A DNA stretch of 64,000 nt from an uncultured Candidatus Saccharibacteria bacterium. GTDB lineage: Bacteria > Patescibacteriota > Minisyncoccia > Phycocordibacterales > PALSA-1337. The notes under the pieces are model-generated. The model searched no databases. It was given only the letters and a program-made list of their open reading frames with translations, and had not been told where the DNA came from. The stretch lies in assembly GCA_964412585.1 (NCBI GenBank), contig CAYPPJ010000005.1, positions 1,512 through 65,511 on the forward strand. The letters run 5' to 3'. Shown piece by piece: positions 24,265 through 50,965 of the stretch. Made by a program: the position numbers and the translations under genes. Within the stretch, counting starts at the first letter, position 1. Each line of letters opens with the position of its first letter.

Positions 24265-25002
24265 CTATGTTTTACCCAAAAATACTTTTTCTAATACTCC
24301 GGCTGAGATAATGGTGTGCGGATTGCCTTCAGCATAAACCTTCCCCTTATCGAGCACATACGCACGGGTGGTAATTTCGAGCAGTGATTTCAAATTGTGT
24401 TCAACCACAACAATGGCCATCTTGCGACGCTCATTGATCTCCTTCACTTTGGCAAATACCTCCTTTACAATCTTGGGTGCCAAGCCAAGCGATGGCTCGT
24501 CGAGAAGAAGAATTTTTGGATCAGTCATGAGACCACGTGCAATAGCGAGCATCTGCTGCTGACCGCCAGAAAGTGTGCCTGACTTTGCTTTGAGCTTGCC
24601 ACGAAGCGCAGGAAAGAGGTCGAGTACATTTTCCATACGCTCCTTGCGTTCTTTGGCGCTCGCAATGGACCAGCCGCCAATCTCGATATTTTCATAGACA
24701 GTCAAATGTTTGAAGACGCGACGCCCTTGTGGCACAAATGAAATGCCTCGATGAACAACTTCATGAGATACAGGCGCAAATTCCTTGCCTTCCCAGTAAA
24801 CTTTGCCGGTCTCAATAGGGGCCAGACCAAAGATGGCTTTGAGGATAGTAGATTTGCCCGCGCCGTTGGGACCCATGAGTGCAACGACTTCCCCTTCGTC
24901 GATAGAAACAGATGCTCCTGCAAGCGCTTTGACGCCGCCATAGTGGACATGGATGTCGTTGAGGCGCAACAATGTTTCTGAAGCGGTTTTATCCTGTGAC
25001 AT
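24265..25002 (-). CDS. livF: branched-chain amino acid ABC transporter ATP-binding protein LivF-like
   Basis: GPNGAGKST, LSGGQQQMLAIARGL, LLLDEPSLGLAP. Promoter TTGCAA, then 17 nt, then a TG-extended CACAAT at 25010-25040, with a short leader. Confidence 0.9.
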   Translation of the reverse strand: MSQDKTASETLLRLNDIHVHYGGVKALAGASVSIDEGEVVALMGPNGAGKSTILKAIFGLAPIETGKVYWEGKEFAPVSHEVVHRGISFVPQGRRVFKHLTVYENIEIGGWSIASAKERKERMENVLDLFPALRGKLKAKSGTLSGGQQQMLAIARGLMTDPKILLLDEPSLGLAPKIVKEVFAKVKEINERRKMAIVVVEHNLKSLLEITTRAYVLDKGKVYAEGNPHTIISAGVLEKVFLGKT

Positions 25003-25091
25003 AGGTAAATTGTGCCATTTTTTCGAAACTATTGCAAAATCTTACAGCGCTGATAGGATTGGGGTAAACTGCGGTCAAAGAAAGGCCCCCT

Positions 25092-25391
25092 ATGGTACAC
25101 AATGCAATACTCCAGGCAGTTTTGGAGGGTCGCACTGTTACTGTAGTGGTTACCGGCGGAGAGGTAGACGTTGGCATATTCAAGGCCAATATTCGGAGGA
25201 TACACGGCGGCGTCGCATTCGGCGTCATCAAAGGTGTATCCAACGGAGTGATCGAGCAAAAAATCACCATACCCCCTTCGGGTGTGGAAGGAATACGGAA
25301 TCAGCTCATGAGTCTCTTGAGCCAATCCTCTCTCGACATCAAACCCTTCGAACCGGAACCAGCACATGAAACACACGACTCGCCAAAATAG
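25092..25391 (+). CDS. possible small protein (99 aa) in a GC-rich 438-bp spacer
   Basis: ORF of protein-like composition, followed by a C8 tract and a hairpin/T-run. Opposite in orientation to all its neighbours. Confidence 0.2.
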   Translation: MVHNAILQAVLEGRTVTVVVTGGEVDVGIFKANIRRIHGGVAFGVIKGVSNGVIEQKITIPPSGVEGIRNQLMSLLSQSSLDIKPFEPEPAHETHDSPK

Positions 25392-25440
25392 CCCCCCCCG
25401 TCGCGCTCCCTAGGAACTTCTTTTCTTCGGAGCGTGATTT

Positions 25441-48563: not shown

Positions 48564-49682
48564 CTACTTTACTTCCGTAGAGACTCCGTTAGCAATGCGC
48601 TTGACCGCGTAGTTCGCAGAGGTCATATCGCCATTCTGATCAAACTCGATTGTGCCTGATATACCATCATGCTTAGTCGAACGAATCGCGTCAGCAAGCT
48701 TATCTGCATCAACACTACCTGTTTTCTTGATTGCATCGGCGATAATAGTGAGAGCGTCATATGCTTGAGGGGCACAGATTGGGACTTGTGTACCGCCGGT
48801 CTTGGCTAATACTTTTCGAGAAAAGTCAGGATTATTGCCACCACCAGTTACAATTTCTGTGTAAAGTATGTCTGGATTCAACTTCGAAACGTCAACAATG
48901 AACTTGGTATCGGCCCAACCATCACCTCCCAACATTTTGGTCTTGATACCAAGCTGGAGTGCCTGCTGGACCATGACATATCCCCCTTCTGGATACAGTG
49001 GAGTATACAAATAATCAGGATTCGTCGCTTTTATTTTTGCCAACTGAGTTTTGTATTCACGATTGTCCTGTGCACTTCCCTCTTCGGCAACAATGGTACC
49101 TCCAAGCTCCTTGAAACGGTTACCAAAAACCGTTTTGAGACCATTACCCCAGTCCGTTATGTGATAGATGATAGCAACCTTCCTCGCGCCAAGTACGTTG
49201 TAAGCGTATTCAGCAGCATATTTTCCTTGATATGCATCGGACGGATAATCTCTAAAGAAATACTTCCCTGAACCAGTAAGATTTGGTGCGGATGAACAAT
49301 ACGCAACCACAGGAACCTTTGCATCCATGGCAATTTTTACAAATGCTGCCGTCTCACTCGAACAAAGTCCTCCGACAACAGCGCTGACTTTATCGCTATT
49401 AATCAGCTTCTGAACCGCGTTAGTAGCGGGAACTGGCGAACACCTTCCATCTTCGTAGACCATTTCTATATTTCGACCATTAATGCCACCTGCCGCATTG
49501 ATTTCTTCTGCTGCAACCTCAACAGCTGCTCGACTAGCTTGTCCAAGCGCTGTCACATCCCCTGTCATCGGCCCAATAAACCCAATCTTAATCGGTCCCG
49601 TCTCCCCCTTCTTCCCTCCTGTTGAGGCGAGGATAATGATGATTACGATCACTACAATGAGAACTCCAATTGTTTTTTTCAT
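48564..49682 (-). CDS. LivK-family ABC substrate-binding protein (paralog 11)
   Basis: TM anchor and a PBP type I fold. Confidence 0.85.
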   Translation of the reverse strand: MKKTIGVLIVVIVIIIILASTGGKKGETGPIKIGFIGPMTGDVTALGQASRAAVEVAAEEINAAGGINGRNIEMVYEDGRCSPVPATNAVQKLINSDKVSAVVGGLCSSETAAFVKIAMDAKVPVVAYCSSAPNLTGSGKYFFRDYPSDAYQGKYAAEYAYNVLGARKVAIIYHITDWGNGLKTVFGNRFKELGGTIVAEEGSAQDNREYKTQLAKIKATNPDYLYTPLYPEGGYVMVQQALQLGIKTKMLGGDGWADTKFIVDVSKLNPDILYTEIVTGGGNNPDFSRKVLAKTGGTQVPICAPQAYDALTIIADAIKKTGSVDADKLADAIRSTKHDGISGTIEFDQNGDMTSANYAVKRIANGVSTEVK

Positions 49683-49698
49683 GATAATAAATTAATAC

Positions 49699-50847
49699 TT
49701 ATTGACCTGTATAAACGGCCTTCTTCCCATCCTTAATAATATAGCTCGTATATCCAACAAGTGTCATGTCACCATTCTGATCGAAATGATAGGTACCAAT
49801 CGTTCCATGGTAATCCGGCATCGCATAGAGATAATCTTTAACCTTCACCGGATCGGTGCCTGCGGTCTTGATAGCATTCAGAAGAATAAATGTTCGGTCA
49901 TAGGCCGCACCAAGTTCGTATTCATTGCCCGGAGATTCTTTGTAACGTGCCTTGTACTCTTCAAGCAAATTCTGGCTGTCACCTGCAATGCCAAGTCCAT
50001 CAGAGAAAATAACTCCTTCGGCATTTTTGCCGGCAATCTTGATCGTCTCCTCATTTCCCATGAAGAAGTTGAAGTAGGCCGGCGCGGTGATACCAAGATC
50101 ACGAGTCTGATTGAGAAGGAGCGCCGCAACAGATGGAGACGTTCCCGCGTTGAAATAGATGGCTTCGGGATTTGTAGCCTTGATTTTGCTCAAGATAGTA
50201 CGGAAATCCTTGGTACTGGCCGCATAAGTCTCGTCAGCAACAATGGTAACGCCTTTGGTTGCAAGAGCGGCCATAAGTGCCTTGCGCATGCCTTCTGAAT
50301 ATTCTGCATTTTCGGTGATGATGGCGATCTTCTTGTATTTGGCGGCCAACACGGCAGAGTCGAGCTTTGCCGCATCTATATCAGAAGGAGAGTTTCGAAA
50401 AATGAAATCACCGGCGTTAGTTATGGATGGCGCACTAGAGAAAGCAGCGAAAAGAATAACGCCAGCCTTTTCAGCGATAGGTGCTGCTCCAAGCGTTTCT
50501 CCACTACAGATGCCACCCATGATGAATTTGACCTGATCAATAGCGATGAGTTTTTGCGCGGCACTGGCGGCATCCTTGCCGGAACACTTGCCGTCTTCGT
50601 AAACGATATCAATCTGGCGGTCTTTAAATGCAGGATCTTGTTTTATTTTTTCCAACGCGAGTTCAATAGCACGCTTTTCGGTCGTACCGTATATTGCAGC
50701 ATCGCCAGTCAGAGGGCCAATAAACCCAATCTTGATCGGCTCATTTGACGCCGGTTTTGAATCTTTGGTCCCCTTCGAGGCAGAAATCCCCCAAATGATG
50801 AGGATTATCACGATCAGTCCGATGACTATTTTTGCAGTTTTGGACAT
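49699..50847 (-). CDS. LivK-family ABC substrate-binding protein (paralog 12)
   Basis: The likely start is MSKTAKIVIGLIVIIL at 50847. PBP type I. Confidence 0.85.
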   Translation of the reverse strand: MSKTAKIVIGLIVIILIIWGISASKGTKDSKPASNEPIKIGFIGPLTGDAAIYGTTEKRAIELALEKIKQDPAFKDRQIDIVYEDGKCSGKDAASAAQKLIAIDQVKFIMGGICSGETLGAAPIAEKAGVILFAAFSSAPSITNAGDFIFRNSPSDIDAAKLDSAVLAAKYKKIAIITENAEYSEGMRKALMAALATKGVTIVADETYAASTKDFRTILSKIKATNPEAIYFNAGTSPSVAALLLNQTRDLGITAPAYFNFFMGNEETIKIAGKNAEGVIFSDGLGIAGDSQNLLEEYKARYKESPGNEYELGAAYDRTFILLNAIKTAGTDPVKVKDYLYAMPDYHGTIGTYHFDQNGDMTLVGYTSYIIKDGKKAVYTGQ

Positions 50848-50965
50848 GTAATTAAAAGGAAATGAATAAAGAGTATATGTACTTATCAAAGAATATCACA
50901 TGGGGTATCTAGCGCAATGGTACATAGAATCTGATGAAAGGAACGACAATTACACAACAAATGAT

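Follow-up and report, generated by a model that had tools for sequence, protein, structure and literature searches.

At positions 24265-50889 of a 64 kb stretch of bacterial genome (the window, by which we mean the whole stretch analysed) lies a 26.6 kb locus in which the genes for one ABC importer of the Liv type are interspersed with genes for twelve substrate-binding proteins (SBPs, here S1 to S12). A reading made from the sequence alone had drawn attention to this locus as a set of twelve LivK-type SBP genes with single copies of livF, livG, livM and livH scattered among them, and the description holds in both its parts: the twelve SBP genes are intact and match PF13458 (E=1e-26 to 1e-57), and Pfam and NCBIfam models detect LivH-, LivM-, LivG- and LivF-like genes in one copy each in the window. 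All twelve SBP genes and the four core genes lie on the minus strand. Families were assigned with Pfam, and finer assignments were made with NCBIfam models that carry equivalog or subfamily cut-offs.

The importer core and the twelve binding proteins

The core consists of two permeases and two ATPases:

44475-45341, minus strand: LivH/UrtB-like permease (PF02653, E=1e-41; NCBIfam UrtB 123 bits, LivH 106 bits, both below cut-off)
42527-43393, minus strand: LivM/UrtC-like permease, 1 bp after S9 (PF02653, E=2e-51; NCBIfam LivM 184 bits, cut-off 366)
33401-34153, minus strand: LivG/UrtD-like ABC ATPase, 4 bp 3' of S6 (PF00005 and a PF12399 BCA_ABC_TP_C tail; NCBIfam LivG 185 bits, UrtD 187 bits, below cut-off)
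24265-25002, minus strand: LivF/UrtE-like ABC ATPase, the last gene of the core (PF00005, E=1e-35; NCBIfam UrtE 228 bits, LivF 197 bits, both below the equivalog cut-off)

With two BPD_transp_2 permeases, two separate ATPases (one with a BCA_ABC_TP_C tail) and Peripla_BP_6 SBPs, the importer has the composition of the HAAT family (TC 3.A.1.4). All of its NCBIfam scores are below cut-off (LivH 106 against 379 bits, LivM 184 against 366, LivG 185 against 362 and LivF 197 against 441, with the Urt models likewise below), and it is therefore classed at HAAT family level only, as Liv/Urt-like, these models placing it in neither the branched-chain nor the urea equivalog. Just one other ABC ATPase is encoded in the window (21440-22117), as part of a HlyD/FtsX set of the MacB type.

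The twelve SBP genes, from the first gene of the array to the last, are as follows:

49699-50847, minus strand: S12, the first gene of the array (PF13458, E=3e-50; start from the Joint Genome Institute (JGI) gene call)
48564-49682, minus strand: S11, the most LivJ-like (PF13458, E=1e-57; NCBIfam LivJ/K subfamily model 166 bits, cut-off 477; S79, S102, Y202 and D226 in LivJ numbering)
45420-46535, minus strand: S10, of the 'core' subfamily c2, partner of the regulator TrmB3 and leading S10-livH-S9-livM (PF13458, E=2e-42)
43395-44468, minus strand: S9, between the two permease genes (PF13458, E=3e-42)
38641-39792, minus strand: S8, partner of TrmB2 (PF13458, E=2e-48)
36675-37751, minus strand: S7, the most divergent, partner of TrmB1 (PF13458, E=1e-34; no NCBIfam hit; best PDB relative 4ey3, E=3e-9)
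34158-35255, minus strand: S6 (PF13458, E=5e-37; start from the JGI gene call)
32058-33134, minus strand: S5 (PF13458, E=1e-37; its own promoter-like site at 33168-33141)
29844-30965, minus strand: S4, among the LivJ-like ones (PF13458, E=9e-54; PDB relatives 3td9 and 1z15 (LivJ), ~1e-30; T79, S102 and D226)
28673-29839, minus strand: S3 (PF13458, E=6e-51)
26589-27590, minus strand: S2, the shortest, a complete form (PF13458, E=3e-26)
25441-26583, minus strand: S1 (PF13458, E=1e-53; best PDB relative 4gnr, E=2e-26; no acidic residue at the equivalent of LivJ E226)

The longest open reading frame (ORF) of S12 begins with a TTG at 50889, and the JGI call starts the gene at 50847. A profile built from the twelve SBPs found no thirteenth in the 64 kb window, and no SBP pseudogene remnants occur in any intergenic stretch of the locus.

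Two outcomes that the sequence-only reading had itself named as fatal to its view did not materialize. The SBPs are not near-identical duplicates or assembly artefacts (pairwise alignment gives 22-36% identity among them), and they do not belong to unrelated binding-protein families, all twelve matching PF13458. Wherever a relative carries an orthologue of one of them, the ratio of nonsynonymous to synonymous substitution rates (dN/dS) is 0.03-0.13, and the SBPs are under purifying selection. In S2 the Pfam match covers two thirds of the PF13458 model; its AlphaFold2 model is nevertheless two-lobed (pLDDT 84), with a TM score of ~0.8 to full-length structures of the LivK/LivJ type (3td9, 4gnr), and its orthologue in the related locus L010 is 81% identical and of equal length, with a dN/dS of 0.04. 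The same locus has been assembled independently in at least eight JGI metagenomes; one such relative (L002) is 99-100% identical to the window and another (L001) represents a strain ~90-96% identical at the nucleotide level.

Each SBP begins with basic residues followed by a strongly hydrophobic segment that has no lipobox Cys, and the same is true of 341 of the 342 SBPs of related loci. The part of the earlier claim that denied a lipoprotein Cys has thus stood, and the transmembrane anchor of its other part would be one of two possibilities, the segment being compatible with an uncleaved anchor and a cleaved signal peptide alike. Either form would be consistent with SBPs tethered at the surface of a cell that lacks an outer membrane.

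The array among related genomes

Related loci were collected from GTDB species genomes as the best 80 LivM hits (69-99% identical, in 78 genomes), with 10 kb on either side of the LivM relative, and their genes were recognized with profiles built from those of the window. Contigs of Candidatus Taylorbacteria metagenome-assembled genomes (MAGs) encode proteins with 95-99% identity to LivM, and L010 (RIFCSPHIGHO2_12_FULL_45_16) shares the DnaX-Dus-SerRS-DprA flank with the window. Because of this identity and this shared flank, the host, a groundwater bacterium, can be placed in Candidatus Taylorbacteria, class Paceibacteria, of the candidate phyla radiation (CPR), which agrees with the metabolically reduced organism that had been suspected. 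Third-party-annotation MAGs with the locus are often titled 'Candidatus Saccharibacteria', and one 'Spirochaetia' (L011-L084, L076); these titles look unreliable, as the LivM proteins concerned share 69-99% identity with the ones found in Taylorbacteria and other Paceibacteria.

The comparative genomics that the sequence-only reading had recommended as a check recovers the same core in 80 related loci with anything from 0 to at least 13 SBP genes. Each related locus has one livH-livM-livG-livF set, with its SBP genes co-oriented. Among complete loci (all four core genes present, n=47) the number of SBP genes is 0-12, with a median of 4, the window having the maximum; partial loci have up to 13 (L042), and L053, on a closed chromosome of 716 kb, has 11. 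Single-SBP loci show the canonical order SBP-livH-livM-livG-livF. One or more SBP genes are found upstream of livH in 85% of loci, between livH and livM in 17%, between livM and livG in 64%, between livG and livF in 55% and after livF in 2%.

Clustering of the 354 SBPs gives 53 groups at 35% identity, 83 at 40% and 156 at 50%, over the same genomes in which the permeases are 69-99% identical. At 40-50% identity every SBP of the window is in a subfamily of its own, and for most of them other genomes contain an orthologue. The subfamilies also have preferred places: the S4/S11/S12 type is upstream of livH in 48 of 60 cases and the S10 type (c2) in 25 of 27, the S8 type lies between livM and livG in seven of eight, and the S2 and S5 types come after livG. 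Recent tandem duplication as the origin of the array is ruled out by the finding that the paralogues are closer to orthologues in other genomes than to their own neighbours. From these comparisons the array appears to be largely old and inherited with differential loss, and the multi-SBP architecture to be a property of the Paceibacteria lineage and not a peculiarity of this genome.

The core is more highly conserved than housekeeping proteins, in the few loci with comparable flanking genes (L010, L014, L041, L055). In L010, LivM, LivH and LivG are 95%, 93% and 91% identical to their counterparts in the window, compared with 86% for SerRS, 82% for DnaX and 69% for Dus; in L041 LivM is 77% and DnaX 50% identical, and in L014 LivM is 86% identical and a D-Ala-D-Ala carboxypeptidase 37%. 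Constraint imposed by many partners might explain this, as might exchange between lineages.

Set against this conservation of place and core is a turnover of individual genes. The slot between livH and livM contains a different SBP in each of the window, L001 and L015; these three are unrelated (23-28% identity), with LivH and LivM at 94-100% identity in the same loci. S9 has its nearest relative (58%) in a distant genome, where it sits in another slot. The livH-livM slot is thus a replacement hot spot, with rapid SBP turnover. More generally, between the window and L001 (dS 0.1-0.4, with LivH and LivM proteins 100% identical) four genes have been replaced in place, and the locus as a whole is by this comparison a hot spot for whole-gene replacement. 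Besides S9 (26% identical), the genes concerned are those for GNAT (41%) and EamA (34%) proteins, and one for a protein encoded at 35410-36270, the place of which is taken by an unrelated ORF of 315 residues. The non-Liv genes involved in this part of the discussion are:

27595-28668, minus strand: FMN-dependent 2-hydroxy-acid oxidase/dehydrogenase, between S3 and S2 (PF01070 FMN_dh, E=1e-92; L-lactate oxidase/LldD-like by NCBIfam)
41707-42465, plus strand: OlsB-like GNAT of the N-acyl amino acid synthase family, convergent with livM (PF13444 (Acetyltransf_5), E=1e-28; NCBIfam OlsB 126 bits, cut-off 350)
47553-48443, minus strand: EamA-family membrane transporter, the final gene of S12-S11-EamA (PF00892, E=2e-9)

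The oxidase (the likely ATG of which is 4 nt past the stop codon of S3) and the GNAT had been noticed in the earlier reading, together with three TrmB regulators, and all are present, the EamA gene being an addition. From them a locus for scavenging 2-hydroxy acids and acyl-amino acids had been proposed. This theme finds no backing in the wider comparison: the oxidase occurs in the window strain only, among 81 loci, and the GNAT in a few close relatives only, and they are therefore strain-specific passengers that do not define the system. The EamA gene, in place of which L001 has a 34%-identical homologue, is a variable passenger. Three small proteins of unassigned function are also encoded inside the locus (31074-31733, 35410-36270 and 40751-41533); the first is a membrane protein and the last a secreted protein, neither with a Pfam match.

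Regulators, transcription units and flanking genes

The three regulators, each divergent from an SBP gene, are:

37906-38640, plus strand: TrmB1, divergent from S7 (PF01978, E=6e-13; a weak PLDc_2 match in the C-terminal part, E=0.005)
39864-40673, plus strand: TrmB2, divergent from S8 (PF01978, E=6e-11)
46707-47498, plus strand: TrmB3, divergent from S10 (PF01978, E=1e-11; the N-terminal 100 residues resemble TrmBL1)

All three (244-269 residues) have the TrmB winged helix-turn-helix domain (PF01978) above its gathering score, and are best described as TrmB-like proteins with a C-terminal domain of uncharacterized type. In Thermococcus and Pyrococcus, TrmB is encoded alongside the trehalose/maltose ABC operon, acts at a palindromic site in the promoter region and has a C-terminal sugar-binding domain. 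The likeness is in the placing of a winged helix-turn-helix regulator gene beside those of an ABC importer and its SBP; here, unlike the archaeal case, the regulators are bacterial paralogues, each accompanying one HAAT SBP, and Pfam does not detect the sugar-binding domain. By this analogy, and from the gene arrangement, the paralogues may be sensors of ligands.

Such pairing is common in the related loci, where 91 of the 103 TrmB genes directly adjoin an SBP gene at its 5' side in divergent orientation, and 26% of SBPs are so partnered (20 of 27 in the S10 subfamily c2). Regulators and SBPs co-vary: given the same TrmB subfamily, the probability of the same SBP subfamily is 0.69, as against 0.024 otherwise. 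Each of the three divergent spacers of the window contains a candidate operator:

46656-46679, minus strand: candidate TrmB3 operator, a 24-nt imperfect inverted repeat, TTTTGTCACT-N4-ACGAACAAAA, in the S10/TrmB3 spacer
37862-37879, no strand assigned: candidate TrmB1 operator, TATCAGCAATTCTGATGA, in the S7/TrmB1 spacer
39817-39839, no strand assigned: candidate TrmB2 operator, a perfect palindrome, AAACCTTGG-N5-CCAAGGTTT, in the S8/TrmB2 spacer

The TrmB3 repeat, for which the consensus across loci in spacers of the TrmB3/S10 type is TTTTGTCAyT-N4-ACGAACAAAA, is kept in 16 orthologous spacers in which the remaining sequence is unalignable, and at TrmB identities down to 45%. In 1.4 Mb of loci it is matched 24 times, and no fewer than 17 of the matches fall in divergent spacers between TrmB and SBP genes. 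The single match in the window overlaps the -35 hexamer of each of the two divergent promoter-like sites. Likewise, TATCAGCAATTCTGATGA has a single match in the window and is conserved in the orthologous spacers of L001, L030 and L024, with unalignable flanks. The TrmB2 palindrome overlaps the -35 of a promoter-like site (39838-39865); orthologous spacers of the S8/TrmB2 type have another palindrome in the same place.

Several intergenic gaps are very short, at 1-6 bp, namely those of livH/S9, S9/livM and S6/livG and those within the series S4/S3/FMN_dh/S2/S1, and the short gaps between SBP and core genes therefore indicate co-transcription. Scans for such signals found 26 promoter-like sites (24.6 expected from shuffled sequence) and 36 terminator-like ones (23 +/- 5 expected), of which only the strongest intergenic sites and the hairpins with long stems were used, as suggestions. 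The following bear on the locus:

51327-51300, minus strand: strong terminator upstream of S12, parting it from the preceding gene
47554-47528, minus strand: terminator-like hairpin at the end of the EamA gene
45376-45405, minus strand: hairpin with a 12-bp stem, between S10 and livH
33194-33176, minus strand: terminator-like hairpin 3' of livG

Because of the terminator-like hairpins and the tight gene spacing, the units suggested are S12-S11-EamA; S10 / livH-S9-livM; S8; S7; S6-livG; S5; and S4-S3-oxidase-S2-S1 (-livF). The hairpin between S10 and livH could serve as an attenuator or partial terminator. Across loci the spacer between SBP gene and livH has a median of 96 nt, compared with 24 nt between SBP genes, and usually folds stably (without a shuffle control, so that this is indicative only). 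In other ABC operons, hairpins raise the ratio of SBP to permease expression, and the one after S10 resembles these. Two perfect sigma-70 consensus promoters (12/12, with an extended -10 TG) lie at 31780-31753 and 41614-41586, directly 5' of the small genes 31074-31733 and 40751-41533 inside the array.

The flanking genes are bacterial (UvrB, Mur ligase, FemAB, DnaX, DprA, SerRS and a split transketolase). Abutting the stop codon of livF is a gene (23287-24264) for a protein of 325 residues, with an N-terminal membrane segment and weak matches of coiled-coil type, a counterpart of which (51% identity) follows livF in L021. Near the other border of the array are a glyoxalase-family gene (52502-52888) and one for a protein of 693 residues with no Pfam match (52913-54994); both are also found in the flanks of L001 and L021, the large protein being 98% and 57% identical, respectively. 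Further away, an HlyD-like membrane-fusion protein, an FtsX-type permease and an ABC ATPase (18584-22117) make up a tripartite set of the MacB type, which is noteworthy in a host thought to be without an outer membrane. A pentose-phosphate cluster (6299-10708) contains genes for ribulose-phosphate 3-epimerase (9346-10023), RpiB (10250-10708) and a transketolase split into two genes, one N-terminal (7657-8592) and one C-terminal (6299-7315). The first 2000 positions of the window have a GC content of 0.39, as against ~0.46-0.50 elsewhere, and an ORF there (103-741) has only a weak match, to the C-terminal domain of RNA polymerase alpha.

Binding-protein specificity and a proposed shared translocator

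Whether the twelve SBPs differ in what they bind was approached through the ligand contacts of E. coli LivJ, which we take to be Y18, S79, A100-T102, Y150, Y202, E226 and F276 (the residues agree with the 1z15 sequence), the hydroxyls at 79 and 102 and the acidic residue at 226 presumably holding the carboxylate and ammonium groups of the ligand. The corresponding columns were read from an alignment of 341 SBPs with LivJ, at an identity (~25%) that makes single-residue calls uncertain. At this level of alignment, S4 (T,S,D), S10 (S,S,E) and S11 (S,S,D) have a hydroxyl/acid set at 79, 102 and 226 and S8 a partial one (D,S,E); the other eight of the twelve have no acid at the equivalent of E226. 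S79, S102 and E226 are 96% conserved within subfamily c2, to which S10 belongs. The LivJ-like signature is confined to two subfamilies, both usually just upstream of livH, and one of them is what single-SBP loci carry. Every subfamily has its own sharply conserved signature in the contact columns. In the 15 larger subfamilies conservation within subfamilies is 0.77 in these columns, compared with 0.66 in others, and the difference between subfamilies 0.52 compared with 0.42 (Mann-Whitney p=2e-4). The divergence of ligand-contacting residues that was to be looked for is seen at the positions matching the LivJ contacts, and the pattern fits what would be expected of distinct, maintained specificities.

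A good deal is known of importers in which several SBPs serve one translocator. In E. coli, LivJ and LivK share LivHMGF, under the control of Lrp. All five kinds of component belong to the same protein families there and here, an SBP gene is upstream of livH, there are several SBPs to one translocator, and LivJ is among the best solved relatives of S4 (E=1e-29). The two E. coli SBPs, however, are ~80% identical with overlapping ligands, whereas the twelve are 22-36% identical with differing predicted pockets; the SBP genes here are intercalated between livH, livM, livG and livF, the proteins have N-terminal tethers and are not free in a periplasm, the regulators are of the TrmB type, and no component reaches its NCBIfam equivalog cut-off. 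HisJ/ArgT with HisQMP, OppA1-5 with OppBCDF in Borrelia, and AmiA/AliA/AliB in pneumococci are further cases in which several SBPs broaden one translocator, on the same principle with other SBP and permease families, and such sharing is common in host-dependent bacteria with small genomes. We know of no more than ~5 SBPs in any of these, and of no regulator paired with individual SBP genes. In Rhizobium leguminosarum it has been found by experiment that an orphan SBP, BraC3, the gene of which is separate from the operon, works through the Bra membrane complex and has a different specificity (PMC2978685). BraDEFG-BraC with BraC3 thus belongs to the same transporter family and likewise has an extra SBP on a shared complex; it differs in having two or three SBPs, with the orphan unlinked, as against twelve predicted ones linked in an operon. 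SBPs far outnumber membrane components also among the 'Bug' TTT receptors of Bordetella and Cupriavidus and the HAAT SBPs of Rhodopseudomonas palustris, in large, versatile genomes with scattered genes, unlike the reduced genome here with its copies packed round one core. S2 has the R. palustris SBPs for aromatic acids (4evq, 4ey3, 4f8j, 3ukj) among its structural neighbours, and S7 and S9 have them among their neighbours in sequence; they illustrate that the same fold binds ligands other than amino acids.

Several SBP genes of one family accompanied by a single membrane/ATPase set are the hallmark of a shared translocator, and that is what the window contains, at 12 to 1. It seems to us probable that the locus specifies one HAAT translocator served by many tethered SBPs of differing specificity, the amino-acid-like ones encoded upstream of livH and the non-canonical ones elsewhere, with some of them under TrmB control. 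The combinatorial uptake system of many specificities that the sequence-only reading had offered as one option is consistent with the separate, conserved subfamilies, their purifying selection and their subfamily-specific contact columns. Each SBP would capture a different small solute and dock on the common translocator, so giving a biosynthetically poor CPR bacterium a wide uptake range through one permease; SBPs of the S4, S10, S11 and S12 types would probably take amino acids, and the remaining ones other small organic acids or amides. Core SBP types are encoded just 5' of livH, and extras have gathered upstream of livH and in the livH-livM, livM-livG and livG-livF slots. S7, S8 and S10 are probably each controlled by their own divergent TrmB-type regulator, acting on an inverted repeat over the shared promoter region, and for TrmB3 such control would span the whole S10-livH-S9-livM unit, within which the hairpin after S10 would hold SBP expression above that of the permeases.

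A number of points weigh against this interpretation. We infer the docking of all twelve SBPs on one core, the differences among their ligands, and which way and in response to which effector the TrmB proteins act. Neither NCBIfam scores nor PDB neighbours in sequence or fold allow a ligand class to be assigned: the SBPs score 50-166 bits against a cut-off of 477, their PDB relatives are remote (E 1e-9 to 1e-30), and solved members of the fold bind Leu/Ile/Val, hydroxybenzoates, cinnamates, phenylpyruvate, a 2-oxo acid, pyroglutamate, urea or GABA. We name no ligand because the matches are remote and the neighbours bind mixed classes. The pocket residues, resting on ~25% identity to LivJ, are individually uncertain. 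The 12:1 ratio holds for the 64 kb window, and a second permease pair elsewhere in the genome would be compatible with it. Beyond the weak PLDc_2 match in TrmB1, no C-terminal effector (sugar)-binding domain has a Pfam match in the regulators at E<=1, and in the AlphaFold2 model of TrmB3 the winged helix-turn-helix and the next helix are confident and the C-terminal half has a pLDDT of ~50. The TrmB-SBP co-variation arises in part from inherited synteny, and the promoter-like sites overall barely exceed the expectation from shuffling.

The most serious alternative is that most of the SBPs are redundant amino-acid binders, of one ligand class and differing in affinity or expression in the manner of LivJ and LivK, so that the range of substrates would be widened rather little. 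The LivJ/K subfamily model is the best or nearly the best for 11 of the twelve (S3 scores equally well with the urea model, and for S7 there is no hit), Leu/Ile/Val binders are among the closest solved relatives, and the LivJ-like hydroxyl/acid pair of S4, S10, S11 and partly S8 would be accounted for. We nevertheless think it unlikely. Eight of the twelve have no acid equivalent to E226 and the contact columns are subfamily-specific; identities of 22-36%, in subfamilies conserved over class-level distances, would be hard to produce by affinity tuning alone; and the best score for the favoured model is a long way short of its cut-off.

If some of the SBPs used a permease encoded elsewhere, the true ratio would be lower than 12:1, and our view is confined to 64 kb. 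A precedent exists in the MAG JAUPVY01, with two Liv loci (L065 and L077) of like composition (tetranucleotide correlation 0.96), which probably has two cores and so counts against the shared-translocator interpretation as well; it rules out one core per genome as a universal rule, and the 12:1 ratio of the earlier reading stands for the window only. Such an arrangement is nonetheless given little credence for the present locus, where the twelve SBP genes are interleaved and co-oriented with the core, often 1-6 bp apart. In the 47 complete loci, too, SBP genes occupy places either 5' of livH or within the operon, and only one Liv locus is seen in 76 of the 78 genomes; in the remaining one, CAZBVQ01, the two loci (L016 and L021) differ in GC content (0.43 and 0.47) with a correlation of 0.75, which suggests a mixed bin.

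A non-transport role for part of the array (host recognition, adhesion, reception of signals, or variable surface proteins under phage or host pressure) might be imagined for SBPs tethered to the surface of a probable episymbiont, given their extreme diversity (83 subfamilies at 40% identity in 80 loci) and the swapping of unrelated SBPs between livH and livM in near-identical strains. Yet selection on orthologues is strongly purifying and not diversifying, it is in the ligand-contact columns that the members of a subfamily agree, and permease and ATPase genes lie in tight linkage with the SBP genes. Pfam detects no kinase, chemoreceptor or adhesin domain in the locus, and the sensing role that had been put forward receives no support from a locus without a signalling partner; we regard roles of this kind as very improbable. 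Artefact or decay, which the shortness of S2 might have hinted at, is refuted by the 22-36% identities, the independent assemblies, the dN/dS values, the intact ORFs, the absence of gene remnants and the complete fold and conserved orthologue of S2.

The proposed shared translocator with many tethered SBPs, then, follows a principle already known, and what is different here is its scale (12:1, and as many as 13 SBPs or more in relatives) and the way in which SBP genes are inserted between each transporter gene and the next. Different, too, are the coupling of single SBPs to TrmB-type regulators with conserved candidate operators, and the occurrence of the system in reduced CPR genomes, where its core exceeds housekeeping proteins in conservation. 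Our literature searches brought up no account of such Liv SBP arrays in CPR bacteria or of their pairing with TrmB, the BraC3 case being the one precedent encountered; this is weak evidence of absence, as subscription journals were thinly covered.

It is possible, though we put it forward tentatively and with some doubt, that Paceibacteria, and perhaps other CPR bacteria, conduct most of their scavenging of small molecules through a single, unusually constrained HAAT translocator, a hub for interchangeable SBP or TrmB-SBP modules, which are inherited in their slots and yet gained, lost and exchanged when recombination takes place between conserved genes of the transporter. The nutritional niche of a genome, or its dependence on a host, would then be encoded in its SBP repertoire and could be read from it. 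The pool of modules would be large, with at least 83 SBP subfamilies at 40% identity in 80 genomes. CPR bacteria are without most biosynthetic pathways. On the assumption of a genome of ~1 Mb, the 26.6 kb locus would take up an estimated 2-3% of it for one importer and twelve receptors. If the interpretation is right, it would be an extreme case of the number of receptors accepted by one ABC translocator; the TrmB-SBP pairs and their conserved candidate operators would be rare examples of defined regulatory circuits in uncultivated bacteria, and the set of SBPs would be an experimentally tractable read-out of what each lineage takes up from its surroundings or its host. Loci with many SBPs thus offer a testable lead on how dependent bacteria collect their nutrients.

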